A DNA stretch of 64,000 nt from Halobacteriales archaeon (GTDB taxonomy: Archaea; Halobacteriota; Halobacteria; Halobacteriales; SKSH01). The DNA is taken from the NCBI GenBank assembly GCA_007118145.1, contig SKSD01000015.1, forward strand, positions 11,268 to 75,267. The letters are read 5' to 3'. Within the stretch, counting starts at the first letter, position 1; each line of letters starts with the position of its first letter. Shown one piece after another: positions 6,307-62,281 of the stretch. Position numbers and translations under genes: made by a program. The notes below the pieces were generated by a model, which ran no database searches, was not told the origin of the DNA, and saw nothing but the letters and a program-made list of their open reading frames with translations.

Positions 6307-6867
6307 TCAGGCGACACGTGCTATCACGACGAACGTCTCCGGTCGTGTAGCCGTCTCGACAATGTGATAACCAGCCGTCTGTAGCTGGTCGACCGCCATT
6401 TTGACATTGTACCGCTCATCGAGTGCAGGTCCCGATTCGCCACTCCCGTCGCGTGTCCAATCGATGGCCACCAAGAGACCATCAGGTTGTAATACCCGCT
6501 TTACTTCAGCGTGAGCAGCCGGTGTAGCATATTCGTGGAACGTCATCGTGGAGAACGCCACCGATACAGACCCACTCGCGATGGGGAGGTGATCGATTGA
6601 TGAGGCGACCGGATGCACGTTTGAGGGTGGTGAGTTTTTCAGTAATAGCTCGAGCATCTCCGGTTGGATATCGACGGCGATGATCCGGTCAACGAACCTG
6701 GCGATATCGTTGGTGAAAAATCCCGTCCCACACCCAAGATCGAGGACGGTCCCTTTAGGACCCTCGAGGATGGCATCTGCGAGCTCCTCGCGAGAGCAGT
6801 ACCGATAGCGCCCGGGGTCGTCAAGCGCAGCCGCACGTTCGAGCGGGTAGGTGTGAAATCCCATCAT
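6307..6867 (-). CDS. class I SAM-dependent methyltransferase
   Basis: Motif I VLDLGCGTGFFT. The start is taken at MMGFH (6867) because the longer ORF overlaps the upstream gene. Confidence 0.8.
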   Translation of the reverse strand: MMGFHTYPLERAAALDDPGRYRYCSREELADAILEGPKGTVLDLGCGTGFFTNDIARFVDRIIAVDIQPEMLELLLKNSPPSNVHPVASSIDHLPIASGSVSVAFSTMTFHEYATPAAHAEVKRVLQPDGLLVAIDWTRDGSGESGPALDERYNVKMAVDQLQTAGYHIVETATRPETFVVIARVA

Positions 6868-6920
6868 CCGTTCCTCAGAAGGTGATGCGATAAACCCGGC
6901 GAAGAACGACTGAAACCACC

Positions 6921-7901
6921 TCAGGCAAGAAGTGGGAGTACCTCGTCGCCGAGGCGGTGGATACACCTACGCATCCGCTCCGTCCCGATACCCGGGTAAT
7001 AGGTACGGAGGATGACATGCACGTCTGCACCGAGCCTCGCCTCGATCCGTTCGAGATCGTCCGCGACCGTCTCAGCGTTGCCGATGATGGCACGTTCCCT
7101 CAACTCAGCACGTCGATCGGGGGCTAGCTCGTCGATCGGCTCACCGGCGTACCAGCTCGCATATGTGCGCTGGAGGTAGAGGTACCCATCACGCATCGCC
7201 GCCCACGCTGTGTCAGCATCGTCATCGATGAAACCGTGGCGGAGCACGTACACCTGGAAGGGCCGCTCGATTCCCTCGGTCTCCCTGACACGGTGTATGT
7301 CCTCGACACGGACAGTGATGGCATCGAGATCGAGCGACGATGGTGCGATCCAGCCGTCTGCATGCCTTGCTGCACGTCGAACCGCTGGCTTGGCTGAGCC
7401 ACCTAACAAGATCGGTGGGCCACGACCGGCTGGTGGCGGGGTGATCGGATACTCGAGTGATTCGTTCGACTCAGACCATGCCGATCGAGCCAGTTCGATC
7501 ACGTCCATCGTTCGCTCGACACGGGTGGATTTGTCCAGCCCGAATCCATCGAACTCCTCATCGCGGTACCCGATCGAGAGCCCGAGGTGCATCCGGCCAT
7601 CGGAGATGAGATCGACCGTCGCCGCGTCCTCAACGATACGGATCGGGTCGTACAGTGGTGCAAGCGCGATACAGGTGCCAATAGAGACAGACGACGTGAC
7701 CGCGGCTAGCGCACCCAGAGACGGCATCGTCCCAGAGAGATAGCCATCTTCTGCGAAGTGGTGCTCCGAGACCCATGCGCTGTCCAGCCCAGCCTCTTCG
7801 ATGCTCCCCCCGAGTGCGAGCATCTCGTCGTAGATCTCACTGAACGACCGCTCGTCGTCTGGTCTGCGTTGACAGGTGAACAACCCGGTCCCGACCTCCA
7901 T
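6921..7901 (-). CDS. LLM-class (luciferase-like) flavin/F420-dependent oxidoreductase
   Basis: SAWVSEHHF and GRMHLGLSIGYR are patterns typical of luciferase-like monooxygenases. 326 aa. Confidence 0.75.
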   Translation of the reverse strand: MEVGTGLFTCQRRPDDERSFSEIYDEMLALGGSIEEAGLDSAWVSEHHFAEDGYLSGTMPSLGALAAVTSSVSIGTCIALAPLYDPIRIVEDAATVDLISDGRMHLGLSIGYRDEEFDGFGLDKSTRVERTMDVIELARSAWSESNESLEYPITPPPAGRGPPILLGGSAKPAVRRAARHADGWIAPSSLDLDAITVRVEDIHRVRETEGIERPFQVYVLRHGFIDDDADTAWAAMRDGYLYLQRTYASWYAGEPIDELAPDRRAELRERAIIGNAETVADDLERIEARLGADVHVILRTYYPGIGTERMRRCIHRLGDEVLPLLA

Positions 7902-21727: not shown

Positions 21728-22034
21728 CTTGATAGGTATGTGTGGATGGATACGTTGGGATTGACGGTCACCACCACAAACAGAGAAAATCAGGTGGAAA
21801 GGCGGTGAGCGAGGCTTTCGAGAGGGAACGTTTAACGCTGCCACTGCGTTGATATCGTGCGATCGTGCCAATATTCGACAGGTACATCACGGCCTCAGAT
21901 TAGCACATCACGTTCACTTTCACCATGGCTGGCCGAGGTATATCCCCTCGACAACCTTCGATGTGTATGCCGCTCACCGGCACCCTACCAAACCCACGGT
22001 AACACGCTCGATTCCAACCCCAACCGTTCAAACC

Positions 22035-22187: not shown

Positions 22188-22267
22188 CCGGCGAGACGGC
22201 CGACCCTTTTCTGACGAACCACAAGCTAGACGACCTCGTGTCTCGAGTGACAACCTGTGAGTATCCG

Positions 22268-23206
22268 ATGGTGAGTACACTCGAAGCCATCACAGACTAT
22301 GAGCGCGCACTCGTCATCGGTATCGGCGGTGGTGGGGATATCGTCGGGACCATCCCCACGGGTCGATTATTGCAAACCCTCGGGGTCGAAGTGTACCTCG
22401 GAGGTATCGCCTGGCAACCGGTCCCGAGAGATGTCAAGCCTGGTCCGACGCCGCTGGCCGAGTTACTCGATGTGACCCCACTCGCTGCACACGTTGCAAG
22501 AGTACATCCACACGCGCGCACTATCGACGGCACCCAGCTCCCCGAGGGGATCGTCGCAGAGGCGGTCGATGAACCGGTGTTCATCCTCGATGTGGTCGAT
22601 GGCCCGTTCGCGTTGGCCGATTCACTCGCAGGCGTGCTCGATGAGCATCACATCGATCTCGTTGTTGGGATTGACGCCGGTGGTGATGTCCTCGCCATCG
22701 GAACTGAATCAGGCATTCGCAGTCCCATCAGTGATGCGTTTGGCTTGCTGCTCTTGCGTGAACTTGATGTCACGACACTCGTCGGTGTCATCGGATACGG
22801 AAGTGACGGTGAATTGACGCTAGACGAACTGAACGAGGCGGTCAGCGAGTTGGCCAGGCGAGATGGACTACTCGGTGCTTGGGGCATCACACCACGTGTC
22901 CGTGACGAACTAGAGGGATTGCTCGAATCGGTTGAGACCGAGGCAAGTCGACTCCCAGTCGAGGCAGCAGGTGGGTCATTCGGGAGGTTCAATATCCGAG
23001 ATGGCCGCCGGGTCGCCACCATCACCCCCTCGAGTATGATGACCTATTACTTCGATACCCAACGGGTGATCGACCGCTCGACGACCGTTCGACTCATCGA
23101 ATCAGCCACCGGTGTCGGTGAGGCAGCCGAACGACTCAGAGAGGCAGGTATCCATACCGAACTCGATACTGAACGCTCCCTGTTGCGAGACGATACAACG
23201 TCTTGA
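22268..23206 (+). CDS. DUF1152 domain protein
   Basis: ALVIGIGGGGDIVG and GIDAGGDVL glycine-rich motifs. The ATG at 22268 is preferred over the GTG at 22238. Confidence 0.7.
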   Translation: MVSTLEAITDYERALVIGIGGGGDIVGTIPTGRLLQTLGVEVYLGGIAWQPVPRDVKPGPTPLAELLDVTPLAAHVARVHPHARTIDGTQLPEGIVAEAVDEPVFILDVVDGPFALADSLAGVLDEHHIDLVVGIDAGGDVLAIGTESGIRSPISDAFGLLLLRELDVTTLVGVIGYGSDGELTLDELNEAVSELARRDGLLGAWGITPRVRDELEGLLESVETEASRLPVEAAGGSFGRFNIRDGRRVATITPSSMMTYYFDTQRVIDRSTTVRLIESATGVGEAAERLREAGIHTELDTERSLLRDDTTS

Positions 23207-54275: not shown

Positions 54276-55637
54276 ATGGATTGGACCGAGCGTTACCGTC
54301 CCCGTTCGCTCAGCGAGATACGTGGCAATGACAAGGCAGTCTCACAGTTACGAGACTGGGCAGGCTCGTGGGAGAACCATCGTGAGGCAGTCATCTTGCA
54401 CGGTCCACCCGGGGTGGGCAAAACCTCGAGCGCACACGCACTGGCCGAGGAGATGGGGTGGTCGGTGGTCGAACTCAACGCAAGTGACCAACGGACCAAG
54501 CGCATTATCGAGTCGATAGCTGGCGAGGCAGCCGCATCTGGGACGCTGACGGAGGGCGCCAGCGGTAGACGTCTCATCGTCCTTGACGAGGCGGATAACC
54601 TGCACGGAAATGTCGATCGGGGCGGAACGGGAGCGATCACACGACTGGTGTCGGCAGCCGACCAACCGTTCGTCCTCATCGCGAACGAGTATTACGATAT
54701 GTCCCACGGGCTGCGCAACCGCTGTCGGGGGATCGAGTTTCGCTCGATCACGTCGCGTTCGATCGTCCCGGTGCTCCGCGATATCTGCAGGCGTGAGGGA
54801 ATCCAATTCGAGGAGGCAGCCCTCGAGCACATCGCAGAGCAAACCAGCGGTGATCTGCGTTCGGCGATACAGGATCTGCAGGCGATCGCATCCGGGCGCG
54901 ATGCACTCGAGGTTGATGACGTCATCACCGCCGAACGCGACCGGACTGACAACATCTTCACCTTCCTCGATGGCGTCATCAAGGAACACAATCCACGGGA
55001 TGCGCAACGGGCTGCCTATCGGGTCGATGAGACCCCCGATGACCTACTAGCCTGGCTCGACGAGAACGTCCCAAAGGATTTCACGGGTGGCGAATTGGCT
55101 CGTGCCTACCGCCATCTCGCACTCGCCGACCGCTGGCTCGGGCGCGTGATGGCCACCCAGGAGTACCGCTACTGGCGGTACGCGACGAACCACCTCACCG
55201 CCGGTGTCGCGAGTTCGCGCGACGGGCCGAAAGGTGGATGGACCCGATACGGTCCCCCTGGCTATCGTCGCCGCCTCGGGCAATCACGAGGGAGTCGAAA
55301 CGTCCGTGATGCCATCGCCAGACGGATCGCTGAACATGGAGCGATGAGCGTTGCGACTGCCAGGCGAGAAGTGCTCCCGTACGTCGGAGCGATGACGCAC
55401 CACTGCAAGCCGCGTGCGTTCACCGAGTCAGTGGCCACGGCGTTCGAACTCGATGCCAAGGAGCTCAGTTACCTGACCGGCAGCGGTGCGGATACGAACA
55501 AGGTGACCTCGATCGTTGAGGCAGCCACCGATCGACGCGAACCGGCTGAGACGACCGTCAAAGAGGTCGATTACGAACCAGCCGAGGCCGAGGGTGACGA
55601 TGCCACCGGTCAGGCTGGACTCGGTGACTTCCTCTGA
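54276..55637 (+). CDS. rfcL: replication factor C large subunit
   Basis: WTERYRP, Walker A GPPGVGKTS and Walker B VLDEADN. The C-terminus has a PIP box, QAGLGDFL. Confidence 0.9.
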   Translation: MDWTERYRPRSLSEIRGNDKAVSQLRDWAGSWENHREAVILHGPPGVGKTSSAHALAEEMGWSVVELNASDQRTKRIIESIAGEAAASGTLTEGASGRRLIVLDEADNLHGNVDRGGTGAITRLVSAADQPFVLIANEYYDMSHGLRNRCRGIEFRSITSRSIVPVLRDICRREGIQFEEAALEHIAEQTSGDLRSAIQDLQAIASGRDALEVDDVITAERDRTDNIFTFLDGVIKEHNPRDAQRAAYRVDETPDDLLAWLDENVPKDFTGGELARAYRHLALADRWLGRVMATQEYRYWRYATNHLTAGVASSRDGPKGGWTRYGPPGYRRRLGQSRGSRNVRDAIARRIAEHGAMSVATARREVLPYVGAMTHHCKPRAFTESVATAFELDAKELSYLTGSGADTNKVTSIVEAATDRREPAETTVKEVDYEPAEAEGDDATGQAGLGDFL

Positions 55638-55711
55638 CGACCACCTTTACTTTCACCGACCACTCCTGGCGCGAGTTTAACCGGTCATCGGTGTAAGTCA
55701 AGCGTCCGAGA

Positions 55712-56386
55712 ATGACGTTATCCGAATCAATACCACCCGAGCTTGCCGAGCTCGAGCCCGGCTTGACCTATCTCGACACAGCCGACCCACGCACAGGTGC
55801 GCTTCACGGGATGGTCGAACTGTCACTCACCGCGGAACCCACCGGAGAGATCCTCTGGGTAGACGCACGAAACAGTGCGACGACATACGCGTTCGCCGAT
55901 GCGACCATCCAACATCGTGTACTGTCGGGGATACAGGTGGCCCGCGCGTTCACCGCCTATCAGCATCACTCGTTGATCCACCAGCTGGTCGAGCATATCG
56001 ATGAGCAGACCGCACTCGTGGTCACTCCATGTCTTGGCGCTCTCTACGCCGACGATGATGTCCCTGATGTCGAGGCAGCGATGCTCTTCGCAGATATCAT
56101 CGACACGCTCGACCGACTCGCCGAGGAGCACGCGATACCGATCCTCGTCACGGCGACAACGACACCGTTCGTCAACGAGGTGGTCACCCGTGTCGATCGC
56201 ACGATCACCATCACACAGACCGACCTCGGGCTGGCGTTCGAGACCGATACGTTCCAGACGACGGTCTACCACGGGCCAGGCTATTGGCAGACAACCATCC
56301 CCTACTGGGTCGATCTGTTCGGCCATATCGACCCGGCTGTCGAGGCGATGTGGGAACCCCAGCCATCGCTGGCAACCCTGGGGTGA
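55712..56386 (+). CDS. RadA/RadB-like (RecA-fold) protein lacking the Walker A and B catalytic residues
   Basis: By eye it follows the RadB strand order: ILWVDARNS (compare VVYIDTEG), ALVVTPCLGALYADDD (compare LVVVDSxxALY) and IPILVTATT (compare VVVTNQV). There is no GxxGxGKT/S. See findings. Confidence 0.55.
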   Translation: MTLSESIPPELAELEPGLTYLDTADPRTGALHGMVELSLTAEPTGEILWVDARNSATTYAFADATIQHRVLSGIQVARAFTAYQHHSLIHQLVEHIDEQTALVVTPCLGALYADDDVPDVEAAMLFADIIDTLDRLAEEHAIPILVTATTTPFVNEVVTRVDRTITITQTDLGLAFETDTFQTTVYHGPGYWQTTIPYWVDLFGHIDPAVEAMWEPQPSLATLG

Positions 56387-56392
56387 CTCGCT

Positions 56393-56632
56393 ATGGGACG
56401 GACCAACCCGACCTACCGCGACCTGCTCCGGCGGTACGAGGAGTCGCTACAACCCTACCGTCGCGGTCTTCGCAAGGCGGATCAGGCACACTTCGACCGG
56501 CTGTTCGACCGTGCGCGCCAGCATGCCGATGCGGCAACCTATCAGAACGCGACCGACCCGGAGACGATCGTATTGCTATCGATGCTCCTCGCCCACGAGC
56601 GCGAACTTCATGCGTCCCAGACCGAGGGGTGA
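56393..56632 (+). CDS. 79-aa helical protein, hypothetical
   Basis: MGRTNPTYRDLLRRYEESLQPYRR.. The protein is Arg-rich and helical. It has 6-nt gaps to both neighbours. Confidence 0.55.
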   Translation: MGRTNPTYRDLLRRYEESLQPYRRGLRKADQAHFDRLFDRARQHADAATYQNATDPETIVLLSMLLAHERELHASQTEG

Positions 56633-56638
56633 GGGGAG

Positions 56639-58759
56639 ATGGTCCTCACCATCGAATTCCCCGACACCGGTGGGGCTCACGTGTGGACACTGACCGATGA
56701 AGGAGCTCGGATGCACGTCGATGAGACGTACACCCCCACGGTCTACGTCGAGGGGCCACCTGCATGGTATGACCCATTCACAACGAGCCTGCGCAGCGAC
56801 CCGAAGGTGGTGTCGACGGGGATCGAGCGGTGGTACACCTCACTCCATGCGGCCGAACGGATACCCGTCGTCCGTGTCAATCTCGAGCGGATGGCCGACG
56901 TTCAGGACTTCGCCACCGAGGTCCGTCACCGACACGAACCGGGCGATACACCGACGGGGACCGTCAGGCTGTACAACGTCGACCTGACCCCGCAGTTTCG
57001 CTACTGTCTGGAGACCGGTACCGAACCGGTACCTGACCGTCCACTTCGATCGGTGACGCTGACACTGGGCCATCGAAGTGTTGCCGAGGGATGTCTCGAC
57101 GGACTCTCGATCGATGGTGAACCACTCGGTGGATCACCACGGGCAAGGCTCGAGACCCTCAGCGAACGAATCGAAGCGGTCGATCCTGATGTCCTCATCG
57201 TCAACACTGCCGACCTCATCCCGGTGGTGTTCGACCAGGCAAAAGCCTGCAACATCGCTGGGTTCACTCTCGGCCGTGATGCTGGCTGGTCACAACTGAC
57301 CGGAGGGACGACCTACGAGAGCTACGGGCAAATCGGCTACGCGGCACCCCGGTATCACATCCCGGGTCGGGTGCTGCTCGATACGTCGAACAGTTTCCTC
57401 TGGCACGAGACGAGTCTCGCCGGGATCACCGACCTCGTCGAACGATCGCATCGCCCACTCGAGGAGACCGGATGGGCGAGCATTGGTACGGTATTGACCG
57501 CGATACAGATCCGTCACGCTCTCGAACGTGATGTCCTCGTCCCGTGGAACAAGTGGGAACCGGAGACGTTCAAAGATGTCAGGACACTCCATGCCGCCGA
57601 CCGTGGTGGCTTCACCTTCGCACCTCAAGTCGGCCTCCACGAGGACGTCGTCGAGGTCGACTTCGCCTCATTGTACCCCCGGATCATCTGCGAGTACAAC
57701 GTCAGCCCGGATACCGTCCGCTGTCTGTGCCACCGCGACCGCGCGGACGTCCCCGAGATCGGGTATGCGATCTGTGACGAACGGGGCTTCCTCGCCGACG
57801 TACTCGAACCGTTGCTCGATGACCGTGCCGCCATCAAGGCTGCACTGGCCGAGACAGGCGACCCCGACGAGGCGGCCGAGTTGCGCTCACGGTCTGGCGC
57901 ACTCAAGTGGATCCTCGTCTCCTGTTTTGGCTACCAGGGGTATCGTAACAGCAAGTTCGGCCGTATCGAGTGTCACGAGGCCATCAACGCCTTCGCACGC
58001 GATATCCTGCTCGAGGCGAAGGAGACGTTCGAGGCTGGCGGCTGGGAGATCGTCCACGGTATCGTCGACAGCCTCTGGGTCCGACAGACCGATCCCGAGG
58101 CCACACCGATCGAGGCGATCACCGACGCGGTGACCGAGTCGGTCGGTATCTCTCTTGAGCGCGAGCACGCCTACGAGTGGGTCTGCTTCGTCCCGCGGCG
58201 GGGGCGTCGCGCCGGTGCGCTGACGAAGTACTTCGGCAAGCGTGCTGACGGCGATGGCTACAAGCTCCGCGGTATCGAGGCACGCCAGCGAAGCACACCA
58301 CCGTTCGTCGCCTCCGCACAACGTGAGTACATCGAGGCGCTCGATACACACCGCGAGCCGACCGCGGTCTGCGATCGCCTCATGCGCCATCTCACCACTC
58401 TCGAACGTCGACAGGTGCCACCGGAGCAGCTGCTCATCAGGAGTCGTCTCACCAAAGCACTCGGGGCATACACGCATCGGACGCTCCCCGCGGCGGCGAT
58501 GGCGCGTTCGCGAGACCTCGGCGTCGAACGACATCCAGGCCAGGACGTCCGCTATCTCGTCATCGACGGTGACCCCGACGCCCATGAGCGCGTGCGGTTG
58601 CACTTCGAGACGCTCGAGGCGACGTATGATACCGACTTCTACAAGACGGTGCTGATACGGGCGTGTGAGAGCATCGTCTCACCTCTTGGGTGGGACCGCG
58701 ACCGCATCGAGACGTACCTCAGAGGCGACCGTGCACTCACGCTCGAAACCTTCGGATGA
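56639..58759 (+). CDS. family B DNA polymerase-like protein with degenerate exonuclease and motif C (PolB2-like)
   Basis: Motif A DFASLYPRII and motif B KWILVSCFGYQGY are recognisable. Motif C reads HGIVDS instead of Y(G/x)DTDS. The Exo I position reads LTLGH and Exo II reads NTADLI. Confidence 0.85.
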   Translation: MVLTIEFPDTGGAHVWTLTDEGARMHVDETYTPTVYVEGPPAWYDPFTTSLRSDPKVVSTGIERWYTSLHAAERIPVVRVNLERMADVQDFATEVRHRHEPGDTPTGTVRLYNVDLTPQFRYCLETGTEPVPDRPLRSVTLTLGHRSVAEGCLDGLSIDGEPLGGSPRARLETLSERIEAVDPDVLIVNTADLIPVVFDQAKACNIAGFTLGRDAGWSQLTGGTTYESYGQIGYAAPRYHIPGRVLLDTSNSFLWHETSLAGITDLVERSHRPLEETGWASIGTVLTAIQIRHALERDVLVPWNKWEPETFKDVRTLHAADRGGFTFAPQVGLHEDVVEVDFASLYPRIICEYNVSPDTVRCLCHRDRADVPEIGYAICDERGFLADVLEPLLDDRAAIKAALAETGDPDEAAELRSRSGALKWILVSCFGYQGYRNSKFGRIECHEAINAFARDILLEAKETFEAGGWEIVHGIVDSLWVRQTDPEATPIEAITDAVTESVGISLEREHAYEWVCFVPRRGRRAGALTKYFGKRADGDGYKLRGIEARQRSTPPFVASAQREYIEALDTHREPTAVCDRLMRHLTTLERRQVPPEQLLIRSRLTKALGAYTHRTLPAAAMARSRDLGVERHPGQDVRYLVIDGDPDAHERVRLHFETLEATYDTDFYKTVLIRACESIVSPLGWDRDRIETYLRGDRALTLETFG

Positions 58760-59368: not shown

Positions 59369-61648
59369 ATGGGATTAGATGAGGATGCGCTCGCATATCA
59401 TGCCTCGGACCCCCCAGGGAAGATCGAGATCGCTACGACAAAGTCGACGAGTACCCAGCGCGATCTGAGTCTCGCGTACTCACCCGGTGTCGCAGCGCCG
59501 TGTCGTGCCATCAGGGAGCACCCAGAGGACGCGTACCGATACACCGCCAAGGGGAACCTCGTCGCCGTCATCACCGATGGCTCAGCCGTCCTTGGCCTCG
59601 GCGATATCGGCCCACAGGCGGCCAAACCCGTCATGGAGGGAAAGGGTGTGTTGTTCAAGCGGTTCGCTGATATCGATGTCTTCGATATCGAACTCGATAC
59701 CGAAGACCCGGATGCGTTCGTCGACTGTGTGAGTGCCATGGCGCCGACCTTCGGCGGGATCAACCTCGAGGATATCGCGGCGCCGAAATGCTTCATCATC
59801 GAGGAGGAACTGCGCAGGCAACTCGATATCCCGGTCTTTCACGATGACCAGCACGGGACGGCCATCATCAGCGGTGCGGCGCTGTTGAATGCACTTGATC
59901 TGGCGGACAAACCGATCGAGGCTGTCGATGTGGTGATCTCCGGAGCAGGGGCAAGTGCCATAGCCACGGCCAGATTTTACGTCTCCCTTGGTGTCGACAG
60001 AGACCGTATCACGATGTGCGATTCGCGGGGGATCATCACCCGCGAACGCTCGATGGAGGGTGATATCAACGAGTACAAGCAGGAATTCGCCGTCAATCGC
60101 CCCGGGGGTGAACTCGCAGATGCGATGGTCGATGCAGATGTCTTCGTCGGACTTTCAATCGGAGGGATCGTCGATGAGTCGATGGTCCGTTCGATGGCGG
60201 ATGATCCCATCCTCTTCGCGATGGCCAACCCGGAGCCTGAAATCGGCTACGAGGAGGCGAAAGCAGCACGTGATGACACGGTCATCATGGCGACGGGACG
60301 GTCAGATTATCCCAATCAGGTGAACAACGTCCTCGGGTTCCCATTCATCTTCCGTGGCGCACTCGACGTGCGTGCGACCGAGATAAACGAACACATGAAG
60401 GTGGCCGCAGCAAGGGCACTCGCCCGACTGGCGAGACAGGACGTACCCGATGCGGTCATCAGCGCCTACGGGGATGATCCCATCCAGTATGGGCCGGAGT
60501 ACATCATCCCCAAACCACTCGACCCTCGCGTCCTGTTCGAACTTGCCCCGGCCGTCGCGAATGCAGCGATCGAAAGCGGTGCAACCCGTCGCGAGCTCGA
60601 TATAGACGCATATGTCGAACGGCTCGAGGCACGCCTCGGAAAGAGCCGTGAGATGATGCGCGTCATCTACAACAAGGCCCAGTCAGATCCCAAGCGAGTG
60701 GTGTTGGCCGATGGGATGAACGAGAAGATGATCCGAGCAGCCTACCAGCTCACCGAACAGGGTATCGCCGAACCAGTCCTCCTCGGTGATCCCGATATCA
60801 TCGACCGACGTGTCAAGGGCCTTGGCCTCTCATTCGAGCCAACCGTGGTTGATCCGCGTAATGACCGACGTGAGAGTTATGCCGAACACCTCTACGATCG
60901 ACGGCGACGCAAGGGTGTCACCCGACGTGAGGCGAACGAACTCATCGCCGATCACAACTATTACGCGAGCGTGATGGTCGACCTCGACGATGCAGATGCC
61001 ATGCTCACGGGGCTGACCCATCACTATCCGTCAGCTCTCAGACCACCACTACAGATCATAGGGACCGCACCAGACGCTGACTACGCAGCTGGTGTCTACC
61101 TACTGACCTTCAAGAACAAGATCGTCTTCTGTGCAGATGCAACTGTCAATCAAGATCCGGACGAGGACGTCCTCGCTGAGATCACCCGACATACCGCCGA
61201 GCTGGCTAGGCGGTTCAACGTCGAGCCACGTGCCGCATTGCTCTCATACTCGAACTTCGGCAGCGTCATGAACGAGGGGACAGCCAAACCACGCATCGCA
61301 GCTGGGCGACTGCGTGACGACCCTGAGATAGACTTCCCCGTCGATGGCGAGATGCAGGCAGACACGGCGGTGGTCGAGGAGTTTCTGACGGGTACGTACG
61401 AGTTCAGCGAGCTCGACAAGCCCGCGAACATCCTCATCTTCCCGAACCTCGAGGCAGGCAACATCAGTTACAAGCTGTTACAGCGCCTCGGTGGTGCGGA
61501 GGCGATCGGACCGATGCTCGTCGGAATGGATAAACCGGTTCACGTACTCCAGCGTGACGACGATGTCAAAGATATCGTCAATCTGACGGCCGTGGCAGTG
61601 GTCGACGCACAACACCGAGAAAATCAGTCACTCGATAGATTTACCTGA
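59369..61648 (+). CDS. maeB: NADP-dependent malic enzyme with C-terminal phosphotransacetylase-like domain
   Basis: [26 protein letters not shown] and GAGASA, followed by a PTA-like half. 759 aa. Confidence 0.9.
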
Positions 61649-61654
61649 AAGCTA

Positions 61655-62281
61655 TCAGTCCGAGGAGGTCTCCCTCGCCCGAGATGGTGGTGGGTACATC
61701 TCGTTTCGACGCTGGTAGCTCGCCGTCGGGAGCAGGCAACGAGCTGGTCGGTGTTCGAGATGTGTGTACGCCTCGGGATCGTTGGCGAGTGGGTGTGCAG
61801 GATTGAGACTCCCATCAACCCGGGCAGCTCGCACCTCACCGAGCGTCGCGAGTCGTGCCTGGATTCCACGCCAGTGTTGTCTCGCCCCCTCGGGGATGGC
61901 GATGCTCAACGGTGTATCATCGGGCGGGCCATGGCGTCGGAGTGTGTATGAGTTGATGTTCGTCGCAAGTTCGGCGTGATCGACGAGCACTCCGACACTC
62001 GCATCCGGTGGCATCCGTGTGGCAAGGACATCCAGGCCGAGGTGGAGTGCACGGTACTCGGCCACGTTATTATCTGGACTCTGGTCCGGTCGCGATAACC
62101 GGTCGGTCTGAAGACCGTCGCGTGTCTCAATCACCGCACCGAGACCGCCACCGTGTTCGCGGTAAGACCCATCGGTGGCGAGATAGTAATCGAGGTGATG
62201 CGTACGCGGTGGGTGACCGATCAACGGTGTCGGTGCATCGTCGAAGAGGTCGCGCAATGCCGGGCGACCGAGTCCGACCAT
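61655..62281 (-). CDS. rnhA: ribonuclease HI-like protein with N-terminal extension
   Basis: YLATDGS (Asp), NNVAEYRAL (Glu) and VLVDH (Asp) form the RNase H catalytic pattern. 208 aa. Confidence 0.7.
   Translation of the reverse strand: MVGLGRPALRDLFDDAPTPLIGHPPRTHHLDYYLATDGSYREHGGGLGAVIETRDGLQTDRLSRPDQSPDNNVAEYRALHLGLDVLATRMPPDASVGVLVDHAELATNINSYTLRRHGPPDDTPLSIAIPEGARQHWRGIQARLATLGEVRAARVDGSLNPAHPLANDPEAYTHLEHRPARCLLPTASYQRRNEMYPPPSRARETSSD

Follow-up and report, generated by a model that had tools for sequence, protein, structure and literature searches.

Three same-strand genes at 55712-58759 of the window, a 64,000-nucleotide (nt) stretch of contig SKSD01000015.1 from an uncultured haloarchaeon (Halobacteriales), belong to a known archaeal operon, iRadA-PPB2-PolB2 (group 1a, also called the "PolB2 mutasome"), of which they form a haloarchaeal copy that probably acts in the extension of mismatched or lesion-opposed primer ends. 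The identification draws on features observed directly, namely the gene structure, three family memberships, the loss of ATPase and exonuclease motifs, synteny and conserved motifs. The three open reading frames (ORFs) are:

55712-56386, + strand: ORF1, iRadA, 224 amino acids (aa), an ATPase-dead RadA/Rad51 core without the N-terminal domain
56393-56632, + strand: ORF2, PPB2 (arCOG07300/DUF8156), 79 aa, an MGRTNPTYR arm (56393-56419) followed by three helices
56639-58759, + strand: ORF3, PolB2/Dpo2-type family B DNA polymerase, 706 aa (NF004418, Pfam DNA_pol_B)

In the ORF table, a gap of 74 nt separates ORF1 from the upstream gene rfcL, and gaps of 6 nt separate ORF1 from ORF2 and ORF2 from ORF3, exactly the same-strand spacing given in the first-pass annotation of this DNA. 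The two short junctions read TGA-ctcgct-ATG (ORF1/ORF2) and TGA-ggggag-ATG (ORF2/ORF3). Shine-Dalgarno-like strings (GGTGA and GGGGAG) precede both internal starts and overlap the preceding stop codons, an arrangement that fits a single polycistronic, translationally coupled unit. Each gene has hundreds of homologues (40-85% identity), which, together with the recurrent gene order described below, marks the trio as real genes and not chance ORFs.

The trio belongs to an operon already described

The first-pass annotation presented these genes as a candidate novel module. Its functional guess, a RecA-fold protein joined to an adaptor and a specialised polymerase with a link to the sliding clamp, was largely right, but the novelty did not stand, since the operon had been described, including in haloarchaea (PMC4104785), and modelled as a mutasome (PMC11791011). 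Makarova, Krupovic and Koonin reported PolB2 in a predicted operon with inactivated RadA genes (arCOG07763, arCOG04294 and arCOG08101) and the small helical arCOG07300, covering haloarchaea explicitly and noting orc genes nearby (PMC4104785). Timinskas, Timinskas and Venclovas (2025) named iRadA and PPB2, collected 1823 operons and defined the iRadA-PPB2-PolB2 order as group 1a (PMC11791011). They modelled a PolB2:iRadA:PPB2x3 heteropentamer and described the MGRT arm of PPB2, the D(K/R) motif and an iRadA-binding loop of PolB2 that resembles the RadA oligomerisation motif (PMC11791011). Their dataset includes hundreds of Halobacteria operons with this gene order (PMC11791011). The window thus adds one more copy, from an uncultured soda-lake haloarchaeon, and no new kind of system.

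The third gene encodes a PolB2-type polymerase

ORF3 is a PolB2/Dpo2-type family B polymerase which, judged from its sequence, has lost the exonuclease motifs. It matches NCBIfam NF004418 over its full length (residues 1-705) at 867.6 bits (cutoff 692) and Pfam DNA_pol_B at E=4e-25. Motifs were read from an alignment of the window protein with 21 homologues (22 sequences), and a family profile was aligned to Pyrococcus abyssi PolB; these comparisons and NF004418 uphold the PolB2-type call of the first-pass annotation. The PolA motif is kept as D341-FASLYP and is invariant. The PolB motif, K423-WILVSCFGYQGY, is conserved with Ser in place of Asn. At PolC, H473-GIV-D477 (HxxxD) lies opposite YIDTD of P. 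abyssi PolB, so that the first Asp is lost and the second kept; H473, G474, I475, D477 and S478 are invariant. This region (HGIVDSLWV in the window) is nearly identical to the HGIVDSIWV given for group 1a Halobacteria in the supplement of PMC11791011, and HxxxD replaces YxDTD in all PolB2 enzymes (PMC8764526).

In the profile alignment, DIE of Exo I falls opposite non-acidic residues (VTLTLGH in the window), and the NxxxFD of Exo II is without its FD dipeptide (DPDVLIVNTADLIP in the window). No alignment was obtained for Exo III. A candidate Exo I at VDLT (residues 114-117) was dropped because the profile alignment places Exo I at VTLTLGH. Ahead of the PolA motif lies a further conserved segment:

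57569-57604, + strand: PolB2 loop F311-K-D-V ... A320-D321-R322-G-G, a D(K/R) motif after an FxxA-like segment, candidate iRadA-binding motif

Residues A320, D321, R322, G323 and G324 are invariant among the 22 sequences, and F311 and K312 are at least 90% conserved. The iRadA-binding role of this loop comes from published AlphaFold models (PMC11791011).

Calling the polymerase crippled, as the first-pass annotation did, is outdated: PolB2 enzymes with the same HxxxD are robust and lack only proofreading (PMC8764526). Sulfolobus Dpo2, which carries HxxxD, is as active as the replicase in nucleotide incorporation, and purified Dpo2 from S. islandicus and S. solfataricus is a robust, exonuclease-less enzyme that extends mismatched and lesion-opposed termini (PMC8764526). 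Of the S. islandicus polymerases, only Dpo2 is induced by damage, and it accounts for targeted mutagenesis (PMC7390963).

These data bear on an alternative that goes back to the original proposal of an "inactivated" PolB2, in which the complex is catalytically inert and plays a structural or regulatory part, such as at stalled forks or in the control of replication linked to origins and Orc. Such a role would suit the missing first Asp of the PolC DxD, the vanished exonuclease site, the dead ATPase of iRadA and the orc1/cdc6 genes that flank the operon in many haloarchaea (census below; PMC4104785). We nevertheless consider it unlikely, because the same HxxxD supports replicase-level incorporation in Sulfolobus Dpo2 (PMC8764526), the metal-coordinating D341 of PolA and D477, the second PolC Asp, are invariant in haloarchaea, and Sulfolobus Orc1-2 regulates transcription in the damage response rather than acting at origins (PMC6061795).

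The first gene encodes an inactivated RadA

ORF1 has a RadA/Rad51-core fold in which both Walker motifs are lost. The single sequence gives a borderline match to Pfam Rad51 (22.6 bits, cutoff 22, E=7e-5), and a profile built from 34 iRadA family members matches RadA/Rad51 cores in the PDB at E=2.8e-8. An AlphaFold2 (AF2) model was obtained with a predicted local distance difference test score (pLDDT) of 79.9 and a predicted template modelling score (pTM) of 0.76. In a Foldseek search with this model, each of the top 50 hits was a RadA, Rad51 or DMC1 core (E as low as 8.6e-11, probability 1.00, template modelling score ~0.6). The first-pass annotation had proposed a RecA/RadA fold devoid of ATPase motifs, a reading borne out by Pfam, profile, model and Foldseek alike; it had also named the lack of a RecA fold as an outcome that would count against its proposal, and Foldseek and the profile search both found the fold.

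iRadA has no GK[ST]. The P-loop position is occupied by ADPRTGA (residues 24-30), between a strand (17-23) and a helix (29-41). The Walker B Asp position is T105 (Ala in the family consensus), followed by a nearly invariant P106, and in the profile-PDB alignment the family's "vvap" lies opposite "IVDS" of RadA. The N-terminal helical domain of RadA, responsible for polymerisation and DNA binding, is missing: the first core strand begins at residue 17 and the matches are to RadA cores only.

A RadA-like surface in a polymerase operon raises the alternative that the complex serves recombination-dependent synthesis (D-loop extension or fork restart), with iRadA docking on RadA filaments. The RadA core surface is kept in iRadA, PolB2 is predicted to use a motif resembling the RadA oligomerisation motif (PMC11791011), and the contig also carries a RadB/RadA-type gene, namely a RecA_N/Rad51-family gene of 236 aa (probably canonical RadB) ~9 kb downstream of polB2 and beyond the window end (L081, 21032-21742). 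The published models, however, bind PolB2 to iRadA and not to active RadA (ranking score with RadA 0.28; PMC11791011), Sulfolobus genetics leads to targeted mutagenesis and lesion tolerance (PMC7390963), and iRadA lacks the N-terminal polymerisation domain. We judge a recombination role very unlikely and retain extension of mismatched or lesion-opposed ends as the probable function.

ORF2 is PPB2

ORF2 is PPB2 (arCOG07300/DUF8156). It starts with MGRTNPTYRD, and among 32 aligned homologues M1, G2, R3, T4, P6, T7, Y8 and R9 are invariant; the MGRT arm, which corresponds to the motif described for PPB2 (PMC11791011), is present in most of 80 haloarchaeal loci. The AF2 model (pLDDT 79) shows a non-helical arm (residues 1-7) and three helices (8-24, 28-48 and 56-78), consistent with the helical protein of the first-pass annotation. 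The precomputed family PF26485 (DUF8156) is assigned to the identical protein (100%-identical cluster) and to all of the at least 120 homologues among the matches listed. A Pfam-A scan with a local library copy, which may lack the PF26485 model, returned no family for PPB2. [quoted passage not shown]

The gene order recurs across Halobacteria

One genome per species was scanned, giving 422 genomes with a PolB2 relative. From these the 80 best loci were retrieved, all haloarchaeal, with PolB2 identities of 49-72%, and were read by six-frame ORFs and hidden Markov models built from the matches. Synteny was counted in the 76 loci with at least 1300 nt upstream of PolB2. PPB2 lies less than 100 nt upstream of PolB2 in 70/76, and the full iRadA-PPB2-PolB2 tandem is found in 62/76. 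A few further loci have the tandem with small gaps or a displaced iRadA, and both partners are missing in three. The first-pass annotation had put forward a gene-neighbourhood census as a check on its proposal, and the trio proves to be syntenic across Halobacteria, in agreement with the literature.

Several loci depart from this arrangement. iRadA lies ~3.9 kb upstream of PPB2-PolB2 in two of them (L012 and L019). Four Haladaptatus plasmids or contigs (L062, L067, L070 and L073, at ~6550-6990) carry second PolB2 copies with a PPB2-like gene that has no MGRT arm and no iRadA nearby; these may be the published PPB2b-type paralogues or a reduced operon variant. On pHV4 of H. volcanii DS2, a gene for TnpB, an IS200/IS605-type RNA-guided endonuclease, splits the PPB2-like gene from polB2 (L083 9945-11231; record 59944-61230), and SRAP, RNase-H-like, metallophosphoesterase and Cdc6 genes lie just upstream.

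The polymerase tail carries a candidate clamp motif

The C termini quoted in the first-pass annotation, QAGLGDFL for RfcL and LTLETFG for ORF3, agree with the ORF table. A canonical PIP (PCNA-interacting protein) box is of the QxxLxxFF type, with Gln at position 1, an aliphatic residue at position 4 and two aromatic residues at positions 7-8, and is C-terminal. The corresponding feature of the polymerase is:

58733-58756, + strand: PolB2 C-terminal ALTLETFG, PIP-like without Gln, candidate PCNA-binding tail

By these features the PolB2 tail appears PIP-like and is no canonical PIP box. L702 and F705 are invariant among the 22 sequences, and L..[FYW] occurs within the last nine residues of 68/75 haloarchaeal PolB2 proteins vs 3.4% of 1958 control ORFs, so the PIP-like tail noticed in the first-pass annotation is conserved as LxxF. 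PCNA recruitment through this tail may reasonably be proposed, and the Gln-less LxxF tail offers a concrete candidate that profile searches seem to miss. In published operons, clamp-binding motifs were assigned to either iRadA or PolB2, more commonly to iRadA (PMC11791011).

The iRadA of the window ends in QPSLATLG (56360-56386), a QxxLxxL string that has Gln and Leu but lacks an aromatic residue. The C terminus is ...LAALG or ...VALG in close relatives and differs in distant ones; the tail is poorly conserved outside the clade. From its sequence it may provide a weak second clamp contact.

A proposed mechanism for mismatch and lesion extension

For complex formation, stoichiometry, polymerase activity, the translesion role, damage induction and PCNA binding we draw on the Sulfolobus Dpo2 literature and the published AlphaFold models, by analogy with which the system would work as follows. 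Transcription of the three genes would start at a promoter of their own within the 74 nt that follow rfcL, and their translation would be coupled. PolB2 would be the catalytic subunit, with its metal-binding Asp residues intact in PolA and in the HxxxD PolC, and with no 3'-5' exonuclease. A PPB2 trimer is predicted to dock on PolB2, one MGRT arm inserting between PolB2 and iRadA near the DNA. iRadA, the ATPase-dead RadA core, would bind the loop of PolB2 that resembles the RadA oligomerisation motif, F311-K-D-V just before D321-R322. The complex would then extend mismatched or lesion-opposed primer ends in damage tolerance, at a mutational cost, and would be recruited to PCNA probably via the conserved C-terminal LxxF tail of PolB2.

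A number of points weigh against this reading. The PolB motif has its Asn replaced (KWILVSCFGY vs KILANSYYGY), and activity is hence extrapolated. Experimental work on haloarchaeal PolB2 amounts to one remark, cited as unpublished, that H. volcanii polB2 can be deleted (PMC7776575); the gene lies near a radA-like gene in that species (PMC7776575). The PolB2 tail has neither the canonical Gln, a position mostly taken by D, T, E or N, nor the second aromatic residue, and in the accessible part of the published table the PCNA-motif columns are empty for haloarchaeal rows (PMC11791011). An expression signal was sought in the sole metatranscriptome from the same sample, which yielded one partial contig and no usable signal.

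In many archaea and some bacteria the module is probably the chief polymerase for inducible, mutagenic damage tolerance, and it is the only known multisubunit family B translesion polymerase of prokaryotes.

A conserved repeat precedes the operon

The rfcL-iRadA spacer contains two short elements:

55643-55654, + strand: upstream repeat ACCTTTACTTTC, an exact ANTTTC hexamer (ACTTTC, 55649-55654) with a degenerate copy directly 5'
55676-55681, + strand: TATA-box-like TTTAAC, 36 nt before the iRadA ATG

The iRadA ATG lies 69 nt downstream of the start of the repeat ACCTTTACTTTC, and TTTAAC lies 21 nt downstream of its end. The spacer (74 nt) also holds a T-rich tract, which together with the TATA-like box suggests transcription separate from rfcL. 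TTTAAC is likely the promoter element of the operon and would give a short-leader or leaderless mRNA. A scan for sigma-70 promoters and intrinsic terminators was uninformative for an archaeon.

Both elements are kept in the five closest relatives, whose loci also carry rfcL upstream (see below). The repeat reads ACTTT[TC]ACTTTC in L001, L002, L061 and L074 and takes the variant form CGTTCACTTTC in L040, and a TATA-like GTTTAA[CT] or GCTTAAC stands at the same place in all five. Repeat and TATA-like box persist in L002 and L040, where rfcL is no longer adjacent.

Across the wider set of loci, ACTTTC occurs in 25/66 iRadA upstream windows (-150 to -15) vs 0.9 expected, and GCTTAT in 17/66 vs 0.2 expected. 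The exact tandem A[CG]TTT[CT]A[CG]TT[TC]C is present in 19/67 such windows (2.1 per kb), vs 22 copies in 2.29 Mb elsewhere in the loci (0.0096 per kb), an enrichment of ~200-fold upstream of iRadA. Offsets from the ATG range from -59 to -112 and are mostly -59 to -76; the form in relatives is ACTTTCACTTTC. Seven of the copies counted as outside lie 59-71 nt upstream of the ATG of an orc1/cdc6 gene that precedes the operon, and others precede PPB2 or PolB2 by 63-90 nt where the upstream genes are absent. Given these positions before orc1/cdc6, PPB2 or PolB2, most of the outside copies are non-random.

A second type of repeat (type B), made of CGGAAAC-like direct repeats, occupies the same place in 25/67 loci and never occurs together with the first (type A). 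CGGAAAC-like repeats also stand upstream of the iRadA-like gene and of the Cdc6 gene on H. volcanii pHV4 (L083). The loci share a common architecture of tandem repeat, ~15-20 nt, TATA-like box, ~25-40 nt and ATG.

Within the window alone the repeat is not significant (2 matches vs 0.86 expected), and support for it comes from its position and cross-species conservation, not from window statistics. The only other near-match in the 64 kb is ACGTTCACTTTCACC at 21910-21921 (+), with GTATATCC another 17 nt on. Downstream of it come a small ORF with a CPxC...CPxC zinc ribbon (ATG 22034) and a 322-aa ORF (22238-23206); the site might mark another target of one shared regulator or be there by chance.

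The hexamer recalls a known system. ANTTTC is the DNA-damage-responsive element of Sulfolobales, bound by Orc1-2 and required for induction, and S. islandicus dpo2 is among the genes that depend on Orc1-2 (PMC6061795). The ACTTTC of the window element matches this hexamer, the ACTTTCACTTTC-like type A repeat of the relatives equals two copies of it, and flanking haloarchaeal orc1/cdc6 genes often carry the same repeat at the same distance from their ATG. The haloarchaeal copies differ in being tandem and in lying at -59 to -76 (up to -112) vs -23 to -55 in Sulfolobus; moreover, the CGGAAAC-like type replaces them in many haloarchaeal genera, and the window has no orc1/cdc6. A search of the accessible literature found no report of an ANTTTC-like element in haloarchaea.

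We tentatively suggest, from the comparison of sequences, that an Orc1/Cdc6-type damage regulon with the PolB2 mutasome as a core target may be common to Crenarchaeota and Halobacteria, a possibility that we hold to be somewhat less than even. The window lineage would then have kept the cis-element although rfcL replaced the orc neighbour, and the CGGAAAC-like type, which recalls origin recognition boxes, would be a lineage-dependent form of the same system. Given the shared repeat, damage regulation in haloarchaea can be tested directly in Halobacterium or Haloferax.

The rfcL neighbour is lineage-specific

The gene upstream of the operon lies outside the conserved module:

54276-55637, + strand: rfcL, replication factor C (RFC) large subunit, 453 aa (NCBIfam NF003228)

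RfcL matches NF003228 at 720 bits (cutoff 456, E=1.6e-216). Its C-terminal PIP box, QAGLGDFL (55611-55634), is kept as Q[AS]GL[GT]DF in the five clade relatives. A true RfcL (E<1e-200) is encoded upstream in only 5/80 loci (L001, L002, L040, L061 and L074), which form one clade of uncultured Halobacteriales with PolB2 70-72% identical to that of the window. A secreted-protein gene stands between rfcL and iRadA in L002 and two opposite-strand transporter genes do so in L040; the adjacency is kept in L001, L061 and L074. In 10/10 other loci tested, the weak upstream AAA+ match was an Orc1/Cdc6 with a Cdc6_lid domain, and the top-20 neighbour families of the 1823 published operons do not include RFC (PMC11791011). 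No orc1/cdc6 gene was found in the 64-kb window.

The first-pass annotation had placed the trio downstream of the clamp-loader gene as part of its case, and one could suppose that rfcL and the trio form a single functional unit in which RFC loads PCNA specifically for PolB2. The 74-nt same-strand spacing, the PIP-type tails on both RfcL and PolB2 and the adjacency kept in three relatives speak for such coupling. It is nonetheless very unlikely: true rfcL is confined to one clade, the genes inserted in L002 and L040 leave the iRadA promoter region conserved, the T-rich tract and TATA-like box in the spacer suggest separate transcription, and RFC is outside the published top-20 families (PMC11791011). 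On the same grounds, with Orc1/Cdc6 standing upstream elsewhere, the rfcL adjacency is a lineage-specific arrangement outside the module and should not be over-read. As a module member rfcL was rejected, given its clade-only occurrence and the intervening genes in L002 and L040.

Comparison with other mutasomes

The closest counterpart of the window trio is the Dpo2 operon of Sulfolobus/Saccharolobus islandicus (group 1a; arCOG07763/arCOG07300/PolB2). Its three tightly spaced genes come from the same families and keep that order and orientation, and it shares the HxxxD PolC, the loss of exonuclease motifs, the D(K/R) loop, the MGRT arm of PPB2 and an ATPase-dead RadA core without the N-terminal domain. 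The window copy differs in following rfcL instead of the usual orc1/cdc6 neighbour, and the haloarchaeal PolB2 tail is a Gln-less LxxF, apparently unscored as a PCNA motif in the accessible published rows.

The likeness to bacterial mutasomes is looser. In the ImuA-ImuB-DnaE2 system, a damage-inducible three-gene cassette joins a RecA-like protein without normal recombinase function to an adaptor and a clamp-recruited error-prone polymerase. The first-pass annotation drew this parallel, and the mutasome analogy is a reasonable one; as kinship it fails, because PPB2 is not ImuB-like and the polymerase is not of family C. DnaE2 is a C-family enzyme and ImuB an inactive Y-family polymerase with a beta-clamp motif, whereas the window polymerase belongs to family B and PPB2 is a three-helix protein; searches of Pfam, NCBIfam and PDB folds found no Y-family similarity in the 79-aa protein. 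No component is homologous beyond the RecA fold. Membership in the ImuA-ImuB-DnaE2 system was rejected on the family B polymerase and the lack of a Y-family match in the 79-aa protein.

The E. coli Pol V mutasome (UmuD'2C-RecA-ATP) likewise combines a specialised polymerase with one RecA-family subunit held through a filament-type oligomerisation motif, and has a small oligomeric subunit with an N-terminal arm extending to the active site, sliding-clamp use and damage-inducible expression. It differs in its Y-family catalytic subunit, in employing the active housekeeping recombinase RecA and not a dedicated dead paralogue, in a UmuD' dimer unrelated to PPB2 and in regulation by LexA. Eukaryotic Pol zeta (Rev3-Rev7x2-Pol31-Pol32) is also a multisubunit family B enzyme with a dead proofreading domain that acts mainly as a lesion extender, a parallel drawn in PMC11791011. 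Its accessory subunits (a HORMA protein and Pol delta subunits) are unrelated, and it has no RecA-family subunit.

Environmental distribution and minor observations

A 208-aa ORF on the - strand (61655-62281) looks RNase-HI-like (DGS...GGLGAV...NNVAEYRAL). It gave no Pfam match and is not similar to the RNase-H-like protein encoded next to the H. volcanii operon.

The stretch was found only in DNA metagenomes from soda lakes and alkali sediments, where 99% of its sampled words are present. It is contiguous in a 20.6-kb contig with three base differences, and the identical PolB2 occurs on contigs of up to 177 kb. Metagenome contig depth rises at 57883-58103 and 54789-55009 (188 vs 53 in X2), where many short contigs end or diverge. 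These intervals are the most conserved parts of polB2 and rfcL, so they are probably common to related populations within those samples.

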